NCBI GenBank assembly: GCA_031551525.1
Contig: JAVBNN010000023.1
Coordinates: 46,442 to 110,441 of the forward strand
From: Acidaminococcales bacterium
GTDB taxonomy: Bacteria; Bacillota; Negativicutes; Acidaminococcales; JAISLQ01
Reading direction: 5' to 3'
DNA length: 64,000 bases
Shown: piece after piece, positions 13,398 to 61,866 of the stretch
Layout: every line of letters starts with the position of its first letter
Position numbering within the stretch: the first letter of the stretch is position 1
Translations under genes and position numbers: made by a program
The notes under the pieces: model-generated
Databases searched by the model: none
The model's input: only the letters and a program-made list of their open reading frames with translations
Told to the model about the DNA's origin: nothing

Positions 13398-13443
13398 TGG
13401 AGCCACCAACAGGAATTGAACCTGCGACCCACGCATTACGAAT
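13398..13443 (-). repeat. attL: displaced original 3' fragment of tRNA-Thr (anticodon loop to CCA)
   Basis: The reverse complement reads ATTCGTAATGCGTGGGTCGCAGGTTCAATTCCTGTTGGTGGCTCCA: a canonical T-arm (GCAGG-TTCAATT-CCTGT), acceptor 3' strand and encoded CCA. 41 of 44 nt are identical to 60129-60172. Confidence 0.9.
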
Positions 13444-52453: not shown

Positions 52454-52849
52454 CTACAATGTACTTGATATTGATGAGCCGATATCTTTTTGCCCCGCCT
52501 GGGGCGGATTAGTCGTCAGCGTTGCCGCGCTGGCGGCTTTTGCTTTTTCCAGCCTTGCCTTTTGGATATCAGTCAACTTCCCTCCTTTCTTTGGCGCCAA
52601 GAGTCTGCGCATCAACTCAGAATCCGCCGTGATTTCGGGCATGCTTACCTGCTTTACTTCCGGCTGGCGGCAAAGCGCATATTTTTCCAGCGCCTCAAGG
52701 CCTGCCGCCAGCGGTATCTTTATGTGCGCCTTGCCAGCAATTATGCAGGGGAGAGATCCCTCCATAGCCAGCTTGCGTATAGTGTTGAGGCTTACCCCCT
52801 GTACTTTTTTATGTAGCTCTCGCGGCGATACATACTGCGTTTCTGCCAT
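52454..52849 (-). CDS. Helix-turn-helix DNA-binding protein (excisionase/MerR-like HTH)
   Basis: N-terminus YVSPRELHKKVQGVSLNTIRKLAMEGSLPCIIAGKAHIKIPL is an excisionase-type wHTH. Confidence 0.5.
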   Translation of the reverse strand: MAETQYVSPRELHKKVQGVSLNTIRKLAMEGSLPCIIAGKAHIKIPLAAGLEALEKYALCRQPEVKQVSMPEITADSELMRRLLAPKKGGKLTDIQKARLEKAKAASAATLTTNPPQAGQKDIGSSISSTL

Positions 52850-52904
52850 TATTTTTCACCTCCTATATTTTGATGGTATAATCACCTTATGAAAGGAGGT
52901 GATT

Positions 52905-53399
52905 ATGATGGACGAGAAAGATTTTTTGAATCTCTTCATATCTCTGTTGGCATCGGTAATTTTCACATTATTTGTGTATGAACATTTAAAGAAAAACCTG
53001 GAAGACGCCTATATTGGTATTGCGGAAGAATGCATTAAAAATTTTGATTTACCAGAAGATACTTCGCCTGCGAAAATACTCCGTTTTGCTTATTTCATTT
53101 TTTCCGGTATTCTTTTTGTAATCTACGTAAAGACCCCTACGCTTTTGATGCCTGTAATCTTTGCAATACCGGCTGCTGTCATCTCACCGCCGATAATATT
53201 GCTTATATTGGTTATTTTTGCTTTTTCCATTTGGCACACATTGGCGTTTCTTTTTGATCTGATTTTATTTGTCGCATATGTGCCCAGTAAAATGTATCGC
53301 GATCGTGAAAACCCCAGTATTAAGCAGTTTAGAATGTTTGTAAGCTATTTGATGGTGTTAGTTTTTATTTGGGGTATCATCTGGGGTTACCTTAAATAA
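52905..53399 (+). CDS. Integral membrane protein (moron, ~164 aa)
   Basis: Perfect extended -10 TGGTATAAT at 52874-52882 and an AGGAGG RBS. 4-5 TM segments. Opposite strand to the early operon. Confidence 0.6.
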   Translation: MMDEKDFLNLFISLLASVIFTLFVYEHLKKNLEDAYIGIAEECIKNFDLPEDTSPAKILRFAYFIFSGILFVIYVKTPTLLMPVIFAIPAAVISPPIILLILVIFAFSIWHTLAFLFDLILFVAYVPSKMYRDRENPSIKQFRMFVSYLMVLVFIWGIIWGYLK

Positions 53400-53540
53400 C
53401 GCAATCATTTTCTTTTTCACTTCCGGCGCTTCGTCGACCAGCATCTTTACAAAGTACCAAGCCAAAAAAAGAAAAAGTTGAAACCAAACTAAAGATAAAA
53501 GAAATAAAAATATTTCCATTAACACAGTATTGTCCTTCAC
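53358..53540 (-). CDS. Small membrane protein (hypothetical; start uncertain)
   Basis: Hydrophobic core IFLFLLSLVWFQLFLFLAWYF. Several candidate starts (GTG 53540, GTG 53525, ATG 53519). Confidence 0.3.
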   Translation of the reverse strand: MKDNTVLMEIFLFLLSLVWFQLFLFLAWYFVKMLVDEAPEVKKKMIALFKVTPDDTPNKN

Positions 53541-53608
53541 CTCCTATGCCGTAGTTTTGGTTTGTATATGGTATAATCTATCTGTGAAGCCCCTGGAAAG
53601 AAGGCACA

Positions 53609-53800
53609 ATGCTGTTTAGCTACTACACTCTTGGCCTAACCCCCGAAGCCGTAAAGGCTTTGGTAGCAAACCTTAAAGCAGAAGGCAAGTCTACCGAAGA
53701 AATCATTGTCGAAGTTGTAAGCCAAAACAACCAGGATATTAACGCCAATCTCCGCTCCACCCTTCAATCCTTTGAAGATGAAATAAGAAAACTCCGATAA
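53609..53800 (+). CDS. 63-aa hypothetical protein (moron)
   Basis: Own extended -10 TGGTATAAT at 53569-53577 and a GAAAGAAGG RBS region. Confidence 0.45.
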   Translation: MLFSYYTLGLTPEAVKALVANLKAEGKSTEEIIVEVVSQNNQDINANLRSTLQSFEDEIRKLR

Positions 53801-54041: not shown

Positions 54042-54269
54042 TCAGGCCGTAGTTTTTGCTTGTTTTAACAAATCATTTTTGTTGTTTTCGGCAAAAAAAA
54101 GTAACTCCACTGAAAACCCTGAGTCTTTAGAAATTTCTTTCATAGTCTTTACTGGTGGATTTACCTTACCCTGTTCCCAGTTACTCCAAGTTTGTTGAGT
54201 TACATTGTATTTGTCTGCCATTTCTTGTTGGCTGCGATCTCCGCGATACTTGACTAACATAAAGTTCAT
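54042..54269 (-). CDS. Cro-like XRE-family HTH regulator
   Basis: RSQQEMADKYNVTQQTWSNWEQGKVNP is an HTH_3 motif. Divergent from the repressor gene. GAGGTGA RBS. Confidence 0.8.
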   Translation of the reverse strand: MNFMLVKYRGDRSQQEMADKYNVTQQTWSNWEQGKVNPPVKTMKEISKDSGFSVELLFFAENNKNDLLKQAKTTA

Positions 54270-54290: not shown

Positions 54291-54421
54291 ACAAATTTAA
54301 TTTGTTAAGACAAGATTAACACAAATTATTTTTGTTGTAAATAGTTTTTTCACAAATTATTTTTGTGGCTTTCTTTTCACAAATATTTTTTGTATAATAC
54401 AAGTATACAAATTATTTTTGT
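54291..54421. promoter_or_regulatory. Genetic-switch operator array: five 15-bp ACAAAT(T)ATTTTTGT sites
   Basis: Sites at 54291-54305 (ACAAATTTAATTTGT), 54321-54335, 54352-54366, 54379-54393 and 54407-54421. A TATAAT lies at 54393-54398, facing the repressor gene. Confidence 0.75.
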
Positions 54422-54436
54422 TAGGGTGTGTGTATT

Positions 54437-54799
54437 ATGGATTTAGATAGAACGGCCGTTGCAACGGCTCTCAAAAAACTAAGAGAAGAAAAGGAAATGT
54501 CCCAGCAGGAGTTAGCAAATATGCTTGGCAAGACACAGCAGGCTGTCGATGCTTGGGAGCGTGGCCTTGCTGTGCCCGCGCCTAATATGCTTTCGCGCAT
54601 GGCTACTATTTATGATGTTTCCGTAGACTACCTTCTTGGCCGCACCATTGTCCGGCGGCCTATTGAAACTACCGCTGCACATATGACGGACATCGACGGC
54701 GAATTGACGGACACGGAAGAGGCTAGTCTACGGGCATATCTGGCTATTATGCGCCAGCAGGCAAAAGACAAACAGGCGAAACTGCCGCCGGAGAAATGA
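54437..54799 (+). CDS. CI-like XRE-family repressor (no S24 peptidase domain)
   Basis: MSQQELANMLGKTQQAVDAWERGLAVP is an HTH_3 motif. ~120 aa with an acidic C-terminal extension. Confidence 0.8.
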   Translation: MDLDRTAVATALKKLREEKEMSQQELANMLGKTQQAVDAWERGLAVPAPNMLSRMATIYDVSVDYLLGRTIVRRPIETTAAHMTDIDGELTDTEEASLRAYLAIMRQQAKDKQAKLPPEK

Positions 54800-54902
54800 A
54801 CATACACAAAAAATTATGCGAAATGCAGAGAAAAAGTGCAAAAATGACACTTAAAGCTTAATAAATTAACTTAAAGGCATAAAAAACTACTCTTTTCGCT
54901 TT

Positions 54903-54931
54903 ATGACAACAACAATCAAATATGTTACAAT
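54903..54931 (+). promoter_or_regulatory. Strong promoter of the Abi_2 gene
   Basis: ATGACA, 17-nt spacer, TACAAT, with a TG at -15/-14. Confidence 0.65.
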
Positions 54932-54982
54932 GGTCGCAGAGAGATCTGGGAATGAGTTCATACTCACACCCCCAGGCCAACG

Positions 54983-55013
54983 ATAGCCCCTGTACCATTG
55001 GTACGGGGGCTAT
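54983..55013 (+). promoter_or_regulatory. Stable leader hairpin (attenuator or terminator-like) upstream of the Abi_2 RBS
   Basis: ATAGCCCCTGTACC-att-GGTACGGGGGCTAT (14 bp, one G-U) followed by TCGTCTTTCT and then the GGGAGG RBS. Confidence 0.5.
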
Positions 55014-55036
55014 TCGTCTTTCTGGGAGGTTTTATT

Positions 55037-55987
55037 ATGACTGAAAAAGTATTTAAAACTTATGATGAGCAAATTGATCTTTTAGTAAAACGTGGTCTTA
55101 TTGTTGATGATAGAGACAAGGCCATACAAATACTTAAAAAGGAAAATTATTATAATCTTATAAACGGTTATAATGATCTTTTCCTTGCCAATACCCAGCC
55201 GGAGGAATGTTATAAAAAAGGTGCGAATTTTGTTGAAGTATTTGCACTTTATGATTTTGACAGGGTGTTGCGCGAGTTACTTTTGATTGAGCTATTACGC
55301 ATTGAAAAATGTATCCGTACCACAATAACACACGTTTTCTCAAGCCATTATGGACATGATCATCGTACGTATCTTGACCCAGCACATTTTAACACCAGAA
55401 ATGAGGTCAACCAAAAAAACACACAAGAAATTATAGATGACCTGCAAAAGTTAATCCAGTCACATAGCAGTAACCATAAAGCGATTGCCCACTATCTTGA
55501 TAAACATAAATACATCCCCTTGTGGGTATTATCTGCTGTTATAACATTTGGCACTTTGAACAAGTTTTTTACGCAACTGCAATTGGCAAAAAAACAGGAA
55601 ATAACTGCTGCTTTCAATCTTTCTATCAGAGAATTCGAGCCGTTTTTATATATATTATCCAGTTTTAGAAATAAATGTGCCCACGGTGAAAGGATTTATT
55701 ATTACGCAAAAGATGGTGCAAAACCGAGGTTTATTCCGGAACTAAACTATCACCACCGTTTACACATTCCTAAAAACTCCAAAGGCTATAAGTATGGAAC
55801 AAATGATATATTAGCTGTATTGATTACAATGAAGCATTTTATGCCTAAGGATCGTTACGCCACTCTAATTGTAAAAATAGAAGAAATCTTAACAAAACTT
55901 TCTTCGAAGCTTTTTGTTGTAAAAATCGACGAAGTAAACCACATCATGGGCCTCGTACCTAACTGGACAGATTTGAGGAAAATCTAG
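55037..55987 (+). CDS. Abi_2 (AbiD/AbiF-like) abortive infection protein with HEPN-type R-x4-H motif
   Basis: YDEQIDLLVKRGLIV...ENYYNLINGY...LYDFDRVLR...IPLWVLSAVITFGTL...FRNKCAHGERIY has the family hallmarks and RNKCAH. Confidence 0.85.
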   Translation: MTEKVFKTYDEQIDLLVKRGLIVDDRDKAIQILKKENYYNLINGYNDLFLANTQPEECYKKGANFVEVFALYDFDRVLRELLLIELLRIEKCIRTTITHVFSSHYGHDHRTYLDPAHFNTRNEVNQKNTQEIIDDLQKLIQSHSSNHKAIAHYLDKHKYIPLWVLSAVITFGTLNKFFTQLQLAKKQEITAAFNLSIREFEPFLYILSSFRNKCAHGERIYYYAKDGAKPRFIPELNYHHRLHIPKNSKGYKYGTNDILAVLITMKHFMPKDRYATLIVKIEEILTKLSSKLFVVKIDEVNHIMGLVPNWTDLRKI

Positions 55988-56006
55988 AAACATTGGAGCT
56001 TTTACT

Positions 56007-56465
56007 ATGAACTCACTAATCGCCCTTGCCGACCAGGAGAACATTAGCGTTTCATATGACAACGTATTCAAACGCTTTCACACCCTTGGCCTATACAACA
56101 GCGATGGCGCAACACACCAGATAATCCTCGACAACACCCTCAAAAACGACTACCGACTTTGCCGCTGCATTCTCGCCGAAGAACTTGGCCACCACTTCAC
56201 CAGCGTTGGCCCCACCTTCTACAAAGCCGCCAACTTCTGCTTCTGGAAGCTTAACCACATAAAAGCAGAGCTCAAAGCCTTAAAGTGGTCAGCTTTTTAT
56301 CTCATGCCGGAACCTTTGTTGCAGCAAGCCATAAACAGAGAGCATTTTAATATGGGCTATGAATTTGAAGATTACTTTGAAGTAACACCACAACTCTTAA
56401 TTCACCGGCTGCGCTATGTGCCTGACCTTAGCTTTTTGTGCATTAGTGATTTAGCGGAAATGTAA
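56007..56465 (+). CDS. ImmA/IrrE-family (M78) metallopeptidase-like protein with variant EELGH motif
   Basis: The layout is typical of ImmA (QIILDNTL...CRCILAEELGHHF...ELKALKWSAFYLMP), but the first His of HExxH is replaced by Glu. Confidence 0.65.
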   Translation: MNSLIALADQENISVSYDNVFKRFHTLGLYNSDGATHQIILDNTLKNDYRLCRCILAEELGHHFTSVGPTFYKAANFCFWKLNHIKAELKALKWSAFYLMPEPLLQQAINREHFNMGYEFEDYFEVTPQLLIHRLRYVPDLSFLCISDLAEM

Positions 56466-56489
56466 ATACTATACAAAGGGGCTAACAAG

Positions 56490-57044
56490 GTGATTGATAA
56501 TCCAGTGAAAAAATTTTTGTTTTTAGACTACATGAATTACAAGAAAAGGGAAGCGAAAGAAACACAACTCTTTTCTTTATGGATTCATCACAGTGAGCTA
56601 TTATGGACTAACATAAAGTACCTAGTTACCATTTTTCTCGCCTCTATAACTGGCTGGTTTTTCTTGATAGAAAAAGCTAAGGCGCCTGGGGATAAGTACT
56701 ACATGTGTGCTGCTGTGGTATCTCTTCTCTGCCCTATCTTTGTATTTTTTCCATGGCAACTTGGTGTTCGTTGTGTCGATAAACAAAAAGCGATTGAAAA
56801 AAAACTGCCACATATTTTTAATCTTTTTGATGAAATGCCAAACACTGCCATTATGCGCGGGCGTATTATTTATAACCGAATATTTTATACGATAGCCTTT
56901 GTGTGCGCTATATTGCTTGTAATTGCAACAAGTCTGTTAATATGGCCTATAATATGGTCTGTAATATGGTCTTTTACATGCTCCATCCAAAATTTTAAAT
57001 TTATACACAACTTTATAAAAATCATTCTCCCTTTATTTCAGTAA
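56490..57044 (+). CDS. Integral membrane protein (184 aa, 2+2 TM), unknown function
   Basis: GTG start. TM pairs at about aa 45-105 and 135-170. No family recognised. Confidence 0.5.
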   Translation: MIDNPVKKFLFLDYMNYKKREAKETQLFSLWIHHSELLWTNIKYLVTIFLASITGWFFLIEKAKAPGDKYYMCAAVVSLLCPIFVFFPWQLGVRCVDKQKAIEKKLPHIFNLFDEMPNTAIMRGRIIYNRIFYTIAFVCAILLVIATSLLIWPIIWSVIWSFTCSIQNFKFIHNFIKIILPLFQ

Positions 57045-57060
57045 AGAAAGGATCCCCGCC

Positions 57061-57243
57061 ATGATGTTCCCTAAAAAACCAAAATCGCCAGTCCTGCCAG
57101 TTGACCCGGCAGATATTGACGAGCTGGAACGAAGCGTCGTTTCAATAAACGGCAAGCCATACACTGAGACAAGCGAAAAAGAAAAAGCCGCGCTCCGTGA
57201 AGCGCTGGCTGATGAGTGGAGGAAGTATCCGAATAAGGAATAA
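57061..57243 (+). CDS. 60-aa hypothetical protein
   Basis: ATG with an AAAGGA RBS region. The product is hydrophilic and Pro/Glu/Lys-rich. Confidence 0.4.
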   Translation: MMFPKKPKSPVLPVDPADIDELERSVVSINGKPYTETSEKEKAALREALADEWRKYPNKE

Positions 57244-57353
57244 AAAAATTTTGTGGAATATTTTATTGGTTTTTTAAAGTACTAGTTTTCGCCCCAACCG
57301 CTATTTTAGGCCCTTTTTATTGGTTTTTTATTGGTTTTCATTTACAAAAAGGA

Positions 57354-58877
57354 GTGAATTACATCTTGGATTTCAATAAGTTGTCAAGAGAAAATGGCTG
57401 TATAGAATACAAGCTTTGTGCCCATAAACTTCCTGGCACTTTTTGGGAAACTTATTCTGCTTTCGCAAATACCGCTGGCGGCACAATAATACTAGGGGTA
57501 CAAGAAAATGCTCATCACGCGCCTACTATTGAAGGCGTTGTGAATCCTGAAAAAATTATTACTGACCTTTTCAGCACGGCCTCGTCTTTAGAAAAAGTTA
57601 ATCTTAACCTGCTAAAAGAAGAAAACATATCTATAGAAACTAGCGATGATAAAAAATTTATTTGCATTATAATCCCGGAAGCGCCTATGAATAAAAAACC
57701 TGTGTATCTTAAGAAAAACATGAAACTTACGTATATCCGCAAATATGACGGTGATCATATTGCTACAGACGAGGAGCTGCGTGCATTCGTCAGAAATACT
57801 TTTGATAATATTGATAGTGAACTTTTAGATGGTTATGACATAAATGACCTCCACTTTACAAGTATTATTAATTTCAGAACACTTATACAGGAAAGAAATC
57901 CCTCCACAGATTATTCGCAAATGAACCCTACTGATTTTTTACGTCAAATGGGGTTGTTTGGTGAAGACAAAAATGATGGCGGAAAAATAAAACTTACATT
58001 AGGAGGATTATTGTTTTTAGGTAAATATCAATCTATAATAAACAAAATTCCGCATTTTCATTTAGATTATTTTGATAAGCGCGGCAATAGTGAGCGTTGG
58101 CGAGATAGAGTTGCTGCGGGTGATCTTTTATACCCTGAACTTAATGTGTTTTCATACTATTGGACGATTTACAGTAAATTGAAATCCACAATAGAAGAAC
58201 CATTTAAGTTAGACAAAAATATCATTCGTAAATCAGCTATAGAATTAGATGTGGCGTTACGTGAAGCACTAGTAAACATGCTCATTCATGCTGATTATAG
58301 AGAAGCAAGTACTTCATTAACAACTGAAGTACATGATGCATATTATATATTTATAAATCCCGGAATAATGAAAATCTCCCCAAAAGAGTTTTTTACTGGA
58401 GGAATTTCTAAGCCCCGAAACCATGTTTTAACAACTTTATTTCGTAAAATGGGGGTCTCCGAGCGTGCCGGTAGTGGCGGGCCCAAAATATATGATGTTG
58501 TAAATAAAAACCAATTTCGTATGCCAGAACTGGAAACAAACTTGGAAAAAACCATTCTTAAACTATGGGGCGTAGAGTTGGAACATTCTTACCCAGAACT
58601 ATCCGCCAATGCAAAGGCCGTATATTTGGTCTTAAAGGATCCTTCCAATACCTATTCATCTTCACAAATCCAAGACAAAACCAAGTTGAGTAGGCATTAT
58701 TTACGACAAGCACTAAAAGAATTAGAAGATAAGGACTTAATCATAAGAACAGGACAAAAAAAATCTCAGAAATATACTAAAAAAATGTCTAATATAGAGC
58801 TTATTTCCATAATTGACAGAGGATTTAAGCATGCTAAAGATTTATTACTTGCTTACGATAACAAAGAAGATCGGTGA
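57354..58877 (+). CDS. AlbA_2 (Schlafen-like) + HATPase_c_4 + C-terminal wHTH protein
   Basis: N-terminus IEYK...TYSAFANTAGGTIILGV (AlbA_2/divergent AAA). Middle ALREALVNMLIHADYR (RecG-C-like HATPase_c_4). The true start may be the TTG at 57366. Confidence 0.75.
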   Translation: MNYILDFNKLSRENGCIEYKLCAHKLPGTFWETYSAFANTAGGTIILGVQENAHHAPTIEGVVNPEKIITDLFSTASSLEKVNLNLLKEENISIETSDDKKFICIIIPEAPMNKKPVYLKKNMKLTYIRKYDGDHIATDEELRAFVRNTFDNIDSELLDGYDINDLHFTSIINFRTLIQERNPSTDYSQMNPTDFLRQMGLFGEDKNDGGKIKLTLGGLLFLGKYQSIINKIPHFHLDYFDKRGNSERWRDRVAAGDLLYPELNVFSYYWTIYSKLKSTIEEPFKLDKNIIRKSAIELDVALREALVNMLIHADYREASTSLTTEVHDAYYIFINPGIMKISPKEFFTGGISKPRNHVLTTLFRKMGVSERAGSGGPKIYDVVNKNQFRMPELETNLEKTILKLWGVELEHSYPELSANAKAVYLVLKDPSNTYSSSQIQDKTKLSRHYLRQALKELEDKDLIIRTGQKKSQKYTKKMSNIELISIIDRGFKHAKDLLLAYDNKEDR

Positions 58878-58934
58878 CCATGGAAAACTCATTCCATGCC
58901 GACTGTTCCAGCGACAGCCAGCACCAAGGAGCAC

Positions 58935-60050
58935 CACATGACCAAACGCAAACGCCCTAATGGAGAGGGAACCATATATTACGACAAGAAAAAAGACCTC
59001 TGGCGCGCCATGCTGCCGACACCGCTTGGCCGACGCATGACCAAATCCAGCAAAAGCGAAGAAGTAGTCAAGGACTGGTACAACCAGCAGCGCCTGCTTA
59101 TCGGCCGCGGCAAACACATAGAGCCGCACGCTATCACAGTTTTGCAGTGGATAACAGAGTGGCTGGACAGTTATGCCAAAATCAAAGTAAAGCCTCGGAC
59201 ATATGACCGATATGTCAGCATATCCAAACACCTTGCCCCCATTTATCAGGAACGTCTCCTTGCGCTCTCTCCAGCACACCTACAACGCGTTTACAATGGA
59301 ATGCTGAACACTTACTCGCCCCAAACCATAATCTACGTTCACAGCCTCGCACACAACAGCCTGCGGCAAGCCGTACTTAACAACCTAATACACGATAACC
59401 CGGCGGACAAAGTAACCTTACCCAAAAAGACCCGCAAGCCTATAGCCATATACACCCCCGATGAAATCCTTGCCCTGATCGCGGCAGCCGAAAATTACCG
59501 CAATAGCCTAGTCGTCAAACTCACCTACGCCACCGGACTGCGCCTCTCGGAAGTGCTGGCCCTGCGCTGCGAAGATATTAAAGGTAATGATCTTGAAGTA
59601 AATCAAACCGTCCACGAAAGTACCAGCCAAGGCAAATACTACTCGGACACAAAGTCCACCAACTCACGCCGTAAAATACCCATCCCGCAAATCATCGCAA
59701 CGGCCATCGACGAGCACAAACTAAAAACCGGCATACGGCAAGGACTCCTGTTCCTGAATACCCGAAAAACCGGCGAAAGCCCACATAACTACCTAAGCAA
59801 AATCTTCTCAAAAATTCAGGAAGATGCCGGCGCGAAAAAAGGATTTCACTGCCTGCGCCACACACACGCAACCGAACTCCTCAGCTCCGGCATACCCATA
59901 CACGACGTATCGCGTCGCCTTGGCCATGCTAAAGCAAGCTTTACCCTCGATACCTATATCCAATTTATGCCCGCCTCAGATGAACGAATGATAAGTGCGA
60001 TCGACATCCTCTTAAACCTAGACGCCAGAAAAACAAAAACGCCGCAATAG
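58935..60050 (+). CDS. int: Tyrosine recombinase / phage integrase
   Basis: TGLRLSEVLALRCEDI (Arg), HCLRHTHATELL (H-x-x-R), LGHAKASFTLDTYIQF (His and Tyr). AAGGAG RBS at the ATG at 58935. Adjacent to attR. Confidence 0.95.
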   Translation, partial: HMTKRKRPNGEGTIYYDKKKDLWRAMLPTPLGRRMTKSSKSEEVVKDWYNQQRLLIGRGKHIEPHAITVLQWITEWLDSYAKIKVKPRTYDRYVSISKHLAPIYQERLLALSPAHLQRVYNGMLNTYSPQTIIYVHSLAHNSLRQAVLNNLIHDNPADKVTLPKKTRKPIAIYTPDEILALIAAAENYRNSLVVKLTYATGLRLSEVLALRCEDIKGNDLEVNQTVHESTSQGKYYSDTKSTNSRRKIPIPQIIATAIDEHKLKTGIRQGLLFLNTRKTGESPHNYLSKIFSKIQEDAGAKKGFHCLRHTHATELLSSGIPIHDVSRRLGHAKASFTLDTYIQFMPASDERMISAIDILLNLDARKTKTPQ

Positions 60051-60082
60051 CTTAAAAACTACTGCGACGTTTTTTATTTTTT
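60039..60082 (+). terminator. Terminator after int
   Basis: ACGCCGCA...TGCGACGT stem (one mismatch) followed by TTTTTTATTTTTT. Confidence 0.5.
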
Positions 60083-60088
60083 GTTTAC

Positions 60089-60110
60089 GTTGCACACCCG
60101 GTTGCACACC
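60089..60110 (+). promoter_or_regulatory. Tandem GTTGCACACC repeats (candidate integrase arm-type sites, attR side)
   Basis: cGTTGCACACCC gGTTGCACACCC, in the same orientation and with the same sequence as 13536-13557. Confidence 0.6.
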
Positions 60111-60129
60111 CGAAACCTTGAAGGCATTG

Positions 60130-60202
60130 AGCCACCAACATGAATTTAACCTGCGACCAACGCATTACGAATGCGTTGCTCTACCGGCTGAGCTATGGTG
60201 GC
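60130..60202 (-). tRNA. tRNA-Thr (anticodon CGT) whose 3' half is prophage-derived (attR)
   Basis: Manual cloverleaf: acceptor GCCACCA/TGGTGGC, D-arm GCTC-AGCCGGTA-GAGC, anticodon arm ACGCA-TTCGTAA-TGCGT. The T-arm GCAGG-TTAAATT-CATGT has a G52-A62 mismatch and A56. No CCA is encoded. Confidence 0.85.
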
Positions 60203-60258
60203 GATATGGAAACATTTTATCCCCAAAGAGCGTTGTTGTCAACTTTAAAGTACCGCAG

Positions 60259-61866
60259 TCAGGAGTGTCCACGCTGCAAATAGCGCTCACGCAGTGTGTC
60301 GCAGTAACGTCCGAGGATTGGCACCTGTGCCGCGTCGCTCCAAGGTAGCCCGCCGGTAAAAAGCACCAGCGGCATATATATACCCGCCCCCAAGAACACC
60401 GCCAGCAGTAAGAACCAGTTGCCGATGTAGGCCTGGCTGTAGGATGCCAAAAAGATCCCGCCCGCCATGACCAGCGACGCGCCGAAGACACGTAATGTTA
60501 CTCCCATCTCGAGGACAAAACCTGTATAACGCCAAATAAAAAACATGTTTATCAAAGCCGCCAGTGCCATATCGGCTACCGTGGCATAGGCCGCGCCTTT
60601 TATCGCCAAGGGAGCCTCTGCCACCAGTTGCCAGTTGAGCACTACCTTTACCGCCGCCGCCGCGATCATGGCTAGTACCGGTATGCGGGTGAGGCCCAGC
60701 CCCTGCAGTATCCCCGTACTAACCTGATGTAGCCCGAGAAAAAAGATAGCCATGCTGGATGCACCGATGACTGTAGCTGCGCCAGGTGAATTGTACACTA
60801 CACTCGCCACCGGTTCAGCCAACAGAAAGAGGCCCACTGCGCAAGGCACCGTGACCGCCACTGCTATCCGAAAGGCTGTTCCCGCTTTATCGGCTATATC
60901 CTTTTCATCTCCGGCAGTACGCGCCGTGGCAATCGCGGGAACCAGCGCTATGGACAAGGCTGCCGTCAGGAGGGTGGCAAGGTTTATCAGCGGCACTGCC
61001 ATGCCGGTCAGATAGCCAAATAACTCCGTTGCCTTATGCGTATTATAACCGGCTACTTCGAGGCGCTGCGGTACGATGAGCATATCAAGATTCGCCACAA
61101 TCGGTAGCATCAAGCTGGCCGCCGATATCGGCAACGCCAAACGTAAAAGCCGTTTAAAGAGTTCTGTGCTGCTTTCCTGTTCCCGCTCCTCGGTCGCGAT
61201 AAAACGGTTCGCATGCAGCCGATGAAGGCGCTGCACACAAAAAGACAGTAATAAGAGCGCCATCAACGCACCCGCAGCCGCGCCCATACTGGCGCCCGCC
61301 GCTCCATAGCTCAATCCCAAAGGTAAAAGCAGCCAGGCAAAGAAAAGCATGGTGATAACTCTAAACAGTTGCTCAATGATTTCCGATGCCGCCGTAGGTG
61401 CCATTTTTTGCCAGCCCTGCAAGTAGCCGCGCATACTGGACATAAAAGTTACCAAAAAAACTGCAGGCGCCAGGGCAATAATCGACCAAAAGGCTCGTTC
61501 ATCGCGGATCCATTCATACTTGACCAGCCAGCCGGCGCCAAGAGTCATAAGAAACATACATAGCGCGCCCGTAATAAACAATACCCGTCGGGACAGTTCA
61601 AACACCTGCCGCGCGCCGCAGTAATCCCCTTTAGCCAGTTTTTCCGCTGTGACAATAGATATGGCCACTGGAATCCCGGCCGACGACAGCGTCAAAGCCA
61701 ACAGGTATATAGGAAATCCCATCTGGTAGAGGCCGATACCTTCGCCGCCCAGTATCCGGGAGAGGAACACCCAGTTCAAAGAGCCAATAACTTTGACGAC
61801 TATCCCCGATATAGTCAATATAAGCGTCCCTTTTAAGAGGATCTTGTTTTTACCGGATTCGTCCAT
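60259..61866 (-). CDS. MOP-superfamily flippase (SpoVB/MurJ-like polysaccharide or lipid II transporter)
   Basis: 535 aa with ~14 TM. The N-terminus LLKGTLILTISGIVVKVIGSLNWVFLSRILGGEGIGLYQMGFPIY is typical of the SpoVB/YtgP group. Confidence 0.8.
   Translation of the reverse strand: MDESGKNKILLKGTLILTISGIVVKVIGSLNWVFLSRILGGEGIGLYQMGFPIYLLALTLSSAGIPVAISIVTAEKLAKGDYCGARQVFELSRRVLFITGALCMFLMTLGAGWLVKYEWIRDERAFWSIIALAPAVFLVTFMSSMRGYLQGWQKMAPTAASEIIEQLFRVITMLFFAWLLLPLGLSYGAAGASMGAAAGALMALLLLSFCVQRLHRLHANRFIATEEREQESSTELFKRLLRLALPISAASLMLPIVANLDMLIVPQRLEVAGYNTHKATELFGYLTGMAVPLINLATLLTAALSIALVPAIATARTAGDEKDIADKAGTAFRIAVAVTVPCAVGLFLLAEPVASVVYNSPGAATVIGASSMAIFFLGLHQVSTGILQGLGLTRIPVLAMIAAAAVKVVLNWQLVAEAPLAIKGAAYATVADMALAALINMFFIWRYTGFVLEMGVTLRVFGASLVMAGGIFLASYSQAYIGNWFLLLAVFLGAGIYMPLVLFTGGLPWSDAAQVPILGRYCDTLRERYLQRGHS

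Follow-up and report, generated by a model that had tools for sequence, protein, structure and literature searches.

Probable independent cargo modules in two slots of the lysogeny operon of an Acidaminococcales prophage

This study concerns the lysogeny module of a prophage within a 64,000-nucleotide stretch of contig JAVBNN010000023.1 from an Acidaminococcales bacterium (the window; positions are counted from its first letter), and in particular the genes that lie between a cI/ImmR-like repressor gene and a tyrosine integrase gene. The original prediction, made from the sequence alone, described this interval as a defense hotspot filled by five plus-strand genes, encoding an Abi_2 protein, an ImmA-like peptidase, a 184-amino-acid membrane protein, a 60-amino-acid protein, and a 507-amino-acid Schlafen-like ATPase, and proposed that the last three could form one unit. 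All five open reading frames (ORFs) are present, and the hotspot is borne out; the proposed unit is not. Instead, we consider it likely that the interval is a lysogeny operon with independent cargo modules of low guanine-plus-cytosine (GC) content in two slots, each of them working alone. Separate acquisition and separate function are indicated by the combination of a mosaic base composition, a lack of co-occurrence among the proposed partners, and a shift of the Schlafen gene from one slot to the other in a related prophage.

The mosaic is evident gene by gene. GC content is.508 in cI,.345 in Abi_2,.458 in ImmA, and.506 in the integrase gene (Int), with phage and host at about.52; in the membrane, small, and Schlafen genes it is.342,.481, and.349, respectively, which is not the uniform composition expected of a single acquisition. 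The same three genes were then considered across 133 other loci encoding Schlafen homologues, gathered from genomes, viral contigs, and assemblies, and none of these loci carries either partner. A tblastn search of the membrane and small proteins against them gave no match outside contig L001, from the one public assembly that holds an identical copy of the locus. Clustering of the neighbors of the Schlafen homologues yielded only two recurrent families, a cI-like helix-turn-helix (HTH) protein encoded upstream in 20 loci and a tyrosine integrase encoded downstream in 24, at position +1 in 16 of these; no membrane protein recurs.

The backbone into which the cargo is set emerges from comparison with 80 prophage loci, each with a gene for a relative of the ImmA-like protein. 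It consists of cro on the minus strand followed by cI, ImmA, and Int on the plus strand, with the cI-like gene immediately 5' of ImmA in most of the 78 related prophage loci. In dozens of prophages ImmA and Int are separated by zero to four variable genes, and a minority also vary between cI and ImmA. The two slots thus defined (cI-ImmA and ImmA-Int) hold 33 non-redundant cargo proteins in the related prophages, rich in known defense domains: SIR2 (PDC-S25), Fic (SoFic), GmrSD, two HEPN families, ThsB-like TIR, and SLATT/DUF4231, and further HipA, RhuM, DUF3800, methylases, PDC-S05, and PDC-M03. Abi_2 homologues also occupy the cI-Int interval in other loci. This defense-rich cargo supports the view that the cI-int hotspot is real. 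In the prophage L109 (5782-10249; likewise L106-L108), the order is cro on the minus strand, cI, Schlafen, a 125-amino-acid protein, an ImmA-like gene, and Int; its Schlafen gene sits in the cI-ImmA slot, which is taken by Abi_2 in the window, and not after ImmA.

The plus strand at 54.4-60.05 kb of the window holds seven ORFs (cI, Abi_2, ImmA, membrane, small, Schlafen, and Int), which, together with the elements around them, are as follows.

54042..54269, minus strand: cro-like HTH gene (HTH_3, 3.3e-7; Phage_CI_repr, weak; phrog_3/2328)
54437..54799, plus strand: cI/ImmR-like HTH repressor, 120 amino acids (HTH_3, 6.9e-15; NCBIfam RstR-family, 1.5e-17; PADLOC CapH, 2e-10)
54903..54931, plus strand: sigma-70-like promoter of the Abi_2 module (ATGACA-17-TACAAT with TG extension)
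54938..55022, plus strand: structured leader RNA of the Abi_2 gene (computed fold)
55037..55987, plus strand: AbiD/AbiF-type (Abi_2, HEPN) putative ribonuclease (RNase) toxin, 316 amino acids (Pfam, PADLOC, and 8VZ6 homology)
56007..56465, plus strand: ImmA/IrrE-like (M78) peptidase (phrog_87, 2.4e-19)
56490..57044, plus strand: orphan membrane protein, 184 amino acids (no family)
57064..57243, plus strand: orphan ORF, 59/60 amino acids (no homologue but itself)
57263..57338, no strand: three exact copies of TTATTGGTTTT, iteron-like 11-bp phased repeats in the gap upstream of the Schlafen gene
57366..58877, plus strand: prokaryotic Schlafen, SLFN/AlbA_2 + GHKL ATPase (HATPase_c_4) + winged HTH (wHTH), 503 amino acids (Pfam, alignment, and fold)
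58938..60050, plus strand: tyrosine integrase, 370 amino acids (Phage_integrase, 1.2e-23; phrog_1, 1e-64)
60129..60202, minus strand: tRNA-Thr(CGU), following the integrase

The likely true starts, taken from the gene calls of L001, are 54437 for cI, 57064 for the small ORF, TTG 57366 for Schlafen, and 58938 for Int; longer ORFs extend to GTG 54428 for cI, GTG 57354 for Schlafen, and 58896 for Int. From TTG 57366, the Schlafen protein has 503 amino acids and is preceded by the ribosome-binding site (RBS) AGGAG at 57350-54. An exact look-up of the 507-amino-acid ORF returned nothing because the recorded protein starts at this TTG.

Some features of the locus weigh against strictly separate modules. 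The gaps among the plus-strand genes are short (19, 24, and 16-19 nt; the gap from ImmA to the membrane gene, originally given as 45 nt, is 24 nt), and from Abi_2 to int the plus strand has no predicted terminator, so that the genes may still be co-transcribed. The orphan partners may also be lineage-specific accessories, and the absence of homologues is by itself insufficient to dismiss them. It could be argued from this that the membrane protein, as sensor or effector, the 60-amino-acid protein, and the Schlafen ATPase constitute one phage-specific three-gene abortive-infection system: the genes are co-directional and closely spaced with no predicted plus-strand terminator between them, the membrane protein has conserved motifs and is thus a real protein, and membrane effectors of the SLATT/DUF4231 type occupy the same prophage slot elsewhere. 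Set against this are the 133 loci in which the orphan partners never accompany the Schlafen gene, the relatives of the membrane protein that have no Schlafen neighbor, and the differing GC content of the three genes. Furthermore, a separate region of 110 nt, with a repeat array typical of the clade, precedes the Schlafen gene, and homologues of this gene stand alone beside integrases or, in L092, after an upstream terminator. We regard such a three-gene system as very improbable. That the combination had not been recognized as a named defense system is explained by the fact that no such combination exists, although the family of the 507-amino-acid protein itself has since been named. As for a defensive role of the cargo, the proposal is credible for Abi_2 and for the Schlafen-type ATPase, whereas the ImmA-like peptidase more likely belongs to the repressor/anti-repressor backbone.

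Judged from its sequence, the 507-amino-acid protein is a stand-alone prokaryotic Schlafen of the known family pSlfn-HisKinase-HTH, or 'Schlatpase'-HTH. The domains originally assigned to it are all found: PF04326 (SLFN_AlbA_2; E=1.1e-9), PF13749 (HATPase_c_4; E=8.2e-9), and a C-terminal HTH, which gives weak HTH_36/Rrf2 matches and whose modeled fold matches wHTH domains of the MarR/SlyA/HlyU type with probability 1.00. An AlphaFold2 (AF2) model (predicted local distance difference test score [pLDDT] of 88) agrees with this architecture and matches the uncharacterized structure 3LMM over its full length, as well as the N-domain of 2KYY, the N-domain of SLFN13, and the GHKL kinases (BCKDK and the VanS CA domain). 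The Schlafen profile also matches the active-site region of mammalian SLFN5/8/11/12/14 in the PDB. In an alignment of 31 homologues with 40-57% identity, the Ex4ExK nuclease motif (E13-x4-E18-x-K20, in 507-amino-acid ORF numbering, as for all Schlafen residues here) and the GHKL residues E304, N308, G337, G367, G373, and G375 are invariant. Of the homologues on viral contigs that share 35% identity or more, 13/23 have an integrase immediately downstream and 15/23 have a cI-like HTH gene upstream; in two Schlafen-homologue loci the neighbor is a serine recombinase instead of the tyrosine enzyme. Chromosomal homologues are found in type I restriction-modification (R-M), BREX, or TOTE islands. 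At source, homologues are named 'putative DNA binding domain-containing protein', 'RNA-binding domain-containing protein', or 'ATP-dependent DNA helicase RecG'.

When placed beside what is known of the family, this assignment gains context. Among 55 pSlfn architectures, pSlfn-HisKinase (34%) and pSlfn-HisKinase-HTH (19%) are the commonest, and fusions with Ig-like and DUF262 domains protect Escherichia coli through phage-triggered tRNA cleavage (Perez Taboada et al. 2026, PMC13056530). The SLFN + GHKL 'Schlatpase' supradomain accounts for 58.6% of 103,533 prokaryotic SLFN proteins, and most of these are small proteins that carry an HTH at the C-terminus; in the Argonaute fusion RzAgo, ATP binding (E314/N318) drives the tetramerization that builds the tRNase (bioRxiv 10.64898/2026.05.29.728809). 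An E. lactis Schlafen protein gives abortive defense. The window protein shares with these the three-domain architecture, the Ex4(E/D)xK motif, a C-terminal HTH as in >90% of Schlatpase tails, and a defense or mobile-element neighborhood. Its GHKL E...N pair has the same ExxxN spacing as E314/N318 of RzAgo, an equivalence drawn from spacing and not from direct alignment. It differs in that its gene belongs to a prophage, lies immediately 5' of int, and follows a set of 11-bp phased repeats, and the experimentally working members carry other sensors (Ig-like, DUF262, and Argonaute). A point against a defensive role is that tests in E. coli, which included at least one pSlfn-HisKinase fusion, found none of this class to protect against the panel used (PMC13056530); this leaves defense by this architecture unproven.

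The 110-nt gap before the Schlafen gene contains exact copies of TTATTGGTTTT at 57263-73 and, as a tandem pair, at 57317-27 and 57328-38; no further exact copy occurs within the 64-kb window. Similar arrangements are seen upstream of the homologues, where a distal cluster of one to five copies is followed by a proximal cluster of one to three copies abutting the RBS. The repeat period is 11 bp, sometimes 20-22 bp, and the unit sequences are lineage-specific, often beginning with GATT. Distances between the clusters of about 54, 65, 76, 86, and 97 bp are roughly whole helical turns, with a regularity that is inflated by relatedness among the loci. As the test we used an exact 9-mer recurring at a period of 10-12 or 20-22. 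Repeats so defined occur in 19/28 non-redundant regions upstream of homologues that share at least 37% identity, compared with 23/504 upstream regions of the same loci that served as controls (Fisher p=5.6e-17), and the period is exactly 11 in 15/19 of the positive ones. The repeats are confined to close homologues that align through the wHTH (12/20), as opposed to 1/50 where the C-terminus differs. Loci with repeats upstream of the Schlafen gene include L085-L104, L005-L013, and L123-L132. In L093 (7767-7976) and L099/L100, the 11-bp repeats and a spacer unit of ~55-65 bp are tandemly duplicated, giving three repeat clusters; for the duplication of the L093 type, TRF reports a period of 109, 1.9 copies, and a 97% match. 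Repeats, operators, and autoregulation are not mentioned in PMC13056530 or bioRxiv 10.64898/2026.05.29.728809.

The 11-bp repeats may be operator-type sites for the protein's own wHTH. We infer that the wHTH would bind the phased repeats before its own gene and thereby autoregulate, and perhaps park, a toxic enzyme. In its fuller form, this idea holds that the ~500-amino-acid Schlatpase-HTH clade is governed by an undescribed cis element, in which two clusters of 11-bp repeats are bound head-to-tail by the clade's own wHTH and the gene is thus tightly autorepressed, a proposal that we offer tentatively and rate at somewhat below even chances. Binding to the repeats might also store the tRNase in a DNA-bound, inactive state until infection releases it, by analogy with inactive SLFN-pAgo filaments. 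The small number of copies in the window, only three, tells against an operator, as does the lack of any consensus promoter separating the two repeat clusters, for the window as well as for the homologous loci L086, L097, and L092. The operator reading is consequently not anchored to a mapped promoter, and room is left for a role at the RNA level.

Such a role would make the 11-nt repeats a repetitive leader that neutralizes the RNase in the manner of a type III toxin-antitoxin (ToxI) instead of DNA operators. As at ToxIN-type loci, the gene that immediately follows the repeats encodes an RNase. The proximal cluster, adjoining the RBS, is probably part of the transcript, and with no promoter placed between the clusters, both might lie in the 5' untranslated region. 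Type III antitoxin repeats are longer, however, at about 34-36 nt, no terminator follows the repeats, and both the 11-bp period and the inter-cluster distances fit helical phasing of DNA. Together with the association of the repeats with homologues that share the wHTH, this makes an RNA function unlikely. A DNA-level alternative is that the AlbA_2-GHKL-wHTH protein is mainly a DNA-binding prophage regulator, which binds the 11-bp iterons and controls int or the lysogeny genes, and not a nuclease-based defense; its extreme form would be iteron binding for replication. The weak matches of the wHTH to iteron-binding replication initiator wHTH families (phrog_270/678/186) would suit such a function, as would the phased direct repeats, the recurrence of the gene directly upstream of int, the names given to homologues at source, and the failure of any tested HisKinase-type pSlfn to defend (PMC13056530). 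The invariance of the Ex4ExK and GHKL ATP-site residues across 31 diverse homologues nevertheless implies selection on catalysis, and the same supradomain drives tRNA cleavage in RzAgo. Homologues are also common outside prophages, in R-M, BREX, and TOTE islands, and the serine recombinase neighbors of some argue against a specific partnership with the tyrosine enzyme. On this evidence, a mainly regulatory protein appears even less likely than an RNA role for the repeats, and we retain the reading of a stand-alone Schlafen module with repeats that may serve its own wHTH.

The second credible defense module is that of Abi_2, in the cI-ImmA slot. The original assignment of this protein, including its RNKCAH motif, is upheld by Pfam Abi_2 (E=1e-42) and PADLOC AbiD (E=9.5e-59), and the motif lies at residues 211-216. 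The protein further matches phrog_2158 and aligns to PbAbiF (PDB 8VZ6) with E=3.1e-20, whereby R211 and H216 of the motif fall on the catalytic R210 and H215. The strong promoter that had been ascribed to the gene is present as a 10/12 consensus match with a TG-extended -10 element; its strength is a matter of consensus match only, and a terminator-like leader follows it.

This leader comprises a 5' hairpin (54946-54976) and a hairpin of 15 bp (54982-55014) that resembles a terminator and is followed by a U-rich tail; the minimum free energy (MFE) of the leader is -53.6 kcal/mol (z=-6.1 versus shuffles). The segment ACCCCCAGG (54968-76) has two alternative predicted partners, UCUGGGA at 54945 and the RBS region (55020-29). 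Predicted pairing of the RBS has a probability of 0.8-1.0, and a fold that frees it costs +6.7 kcal/mol. The same arrangement recurs with the homologues, as every inspected Abi_2 homologue locus has a consensus promoter, one or two small hairpins, a strong terminator-like hairpin, an RBS, and the start codon. Across 23 distinct leader clusters, the region from -90 to -4 has a mean MFE of -27.5 kcal/mol, compared with -15.2 kcal/mol in 65 control intergenic regions (p=3e-7). One Abi_2 clade carries AUCUGGGGAG...GCAACCUG in common with AUCUGGGAAUGAG of the window. Abi_2 homologue loci in L221-L318 generally have leaders of this kind, and L227 (3411-6065) has two tandem Abi_2 genes in one lysogeny module, each with its own promoter-hairpin-terminator leader.

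The identity of this RNA was considered with the Rfam abiF family (RF03085). At thresholds as loose as E<=10 the model gives no match in 54850-55060, nor does it match the leaders of 32 Abi_2 homologues, which counts against an AbiF-like RNA partner; with RF03085 absent from both the window and the homologous leaders, an assignment of the leader as abiF RNA was rejected. The sole bona fide RF03085 match in the fetched loci, at 4042-4078 of L262 (minus strand), lies downstream of and antisense to the Abi_2 query homologue and presumably belongs to another gene.

By analogy, the Abi_2 module probably works like an AbiF type III toxin-antitoxin whose RNA is not an RF03085 member. In the RCd22-AbiF pair of the Clostridioides difficile phage phi027, an RNA of ~100 nt terminates transcription in cis and neutralizes the toxin in trans (PMC12373285), and AbiD1 is under translational control (PMC2661086). 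The window protein has in common with RCd22-AbiF(Cd), PbAbiF-AbiFr, and AbiD1 the Abi_2 domain and the R-phi-xxx-H motif (RNKCAH here and RNQCAH in AbiF(Cd)). With RCd22-AbiF(Cd) it also shares a prophage location and the order of a SigA-type promoter, a structured leader of ~85-100 nt, a Rho-independent-type terminator, an RBS, and the gene; this architecture agrees with that of PbAbiF-AbiFr as well. The window leader differs in having one 5' hairpin and not two abiF motifs, and the gene lies in the lysogeny module, between repressor and ImmA, and not in the lysis module. Abi_2 would be transcribed from its own promoter through a leader of ~85 nt that sequesters the RBS. By analogy with RCd22-AbiF(Cd), PbAbiF-AbiFr, and AbiD1, the leader could then hold the toxin in check by ending transcription early and occluding the RBS, and possibly also through direct neutralization of the protein by the RNA. 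Infection would relieve this block, upon which the Abi_2 RNase could arrest translation in an abortive infection.

The ImmA-like gene probably encodes the anti-repressor protease of the prophage and belongs to its backbone, not to the cargo. Its assignment as a peptidase stands on phrog_87 (metallo-protease; E=2.4e-19) and PADLOC CapP (2.8e-6), with Pfam Peptidase_M78 below its cut-off (E=0.0028). Modules of an ImmR repressor and an ImmA anti-repressor protease occur in ICEBs1 and in phages of Gram-positive bacteria, and CapH/CapP are related regulators of defense systems. As in the ImmR/ImmA modules, an HTH_3 repressor is divergent from a cro-like gene, with which it forms the genetic switch, an M78-family peptidase follows downstream on the same strand, and the integrase ends the operon. 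Here, by contrast, an Abi_2 defense gene is inserted between repressor and peptidase, and the peptidase motif is EELGH and not HExxH: residues ~56-64 read AEELGHHFT where HExxH would be expected, with the first His replaced by Glu and an extra His after the motif. The lack of this first His is a point against the proposed peptidase. A homologue in L109 (8608-9210), found independently, reads AEECGHF, while the 78 other ImmA relatives were selected by the AEELGHHFT peptide and are not independent evidence for the motif. The AEELGHHFT/AEECGHF subfamily could, from its sequence, be either an active variant or a pseudo-protease. A role of the ImmA-like protein as a CapP-type defense regulator was also considered and is less likely, the cI-ImmA-Int backbone recurring with variable cargo.

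For the two remaining genes, similarity searches yield little. Each of the 184-amino-acid membrane protein and the small protein retrieves only itself among 5.8 billion protein clusters, and Pfam, PADLOC, PHROGs, and NCBIfam give nothing significant for either. A full HMMER scan of 1.84 billion representatives found only four remote relatives of the membrane protein, with 28-30% identity. The four hydrophobic helices predicted for it are confirmed and resolve into three conserved transmembrane (TM) helices and one extra; the signature LWxxHxxLLW...R..Q...E...RGR is common to the protein and its four relatives. Against PF24838 (8xMP, an octameric membrane protein family), the window protein scores 15 bits (E=0.022), below the gathering cut-off of 30 bits, and the four relatives score 21-30 bits, a sub-threshold hint that the protein may be distantly 8xMP-like. 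Nothing relevant was found in the literature on '8xMP', and the AF2 model (pLDDT 84) had no match with E<0.1 in PDB or BFVD. On other mobile elements, the relatives are neighbors of integrases and lack a Schlafen gene in their vicinity; they may represent a small family borne by such elements. Those at L136/L137 (1119-3086) and L138 (4949-7681) lie directly beside tyrosine integrases and are flanked by unannotated proteins (69 and 401 amino acids, and 192 and 142 amino acids, respectively).

As a guess, the membrane protein could serve in superinfection exclusion or as a membrane-acting Abi effector. In prophages, membrane proteins for superinfection exclusion are encoded in the repressor-integrase interval; lactococcal Sie2009 and Ltp of Streptococcus thermophilus are examples. 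Like these, the window protein is a small membrane protein encoded between cI and int by a temperate phage whose host is of the Gram-positive type; it differs in that no sequence or fold similarity was found, with the sub-threshold Pfam 8xMP match as the only hint. The small ORF, with its backbone-like GC content, may be a backbone remnant.

The cI-int genes are the lysogeny module of a prophage of ~46.7 kb integrated at tRNA-Thr. A 44-bp repeat is present at 13400-13443 and 60129-60172, and since the latter copy is the 3' part of the tRNA-Thr gene, the two mark the attachment (att) sites of this prophage within the window. No near-identical phage was detected by megablast of 54400-60300 against 50,697 phage records, and IMG/VR gave no close relatives of the integrase, sought there as cargo-free versions of the phage. 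Between int and tRNA-Thr, at 60035-60074, a symmetric arrangement of an A-run, an 18-bp hairpin, and a T-run has the look of a bidirectional terminator at the end of the lysogeny operon. Beyond the cro-like gene, on its far side, a second patch of low GC content (0.37-0.38) at 52750-53800 holds a plus-strand 166-amino-acid multi-TM protein (52899-53399), a minus-strand 60-amino-acid TM ORF, and a 63-amino-acid ORF, none with a family match; this patch may have entered the early gene region as a further moron.

In conclusion, the locus is a clear natural example of a temperate phage loading single-gene defenses into the slots of a repressor-ImmA-integrase operon, and recognizing that the three-gene unit fails spares a costly wet-lab test of the wrong construct. 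Abi_2 toxins far from the Rfam abiF motif still carry a promoter-hairpin-terminator leader, which suggests that control by RNA extends to more of the AbiF/AbiD toxins, from which Cas13 is proposed to descend, than Rfam abiF captures. SLFN-GHKL-HTH proteins are the commonest bacterial Schlafen class, without demonstrated function or known control, and the clade-specific repeats suggest that their HTH is an autoregulatory or anchoring module and that repeats plus gene are the minimal native construct. If true, the reading of these repeats as a cis element would supply the missing logic of sensing and regulation for the most abundant, functionally silent class of bacterial Schlafens.

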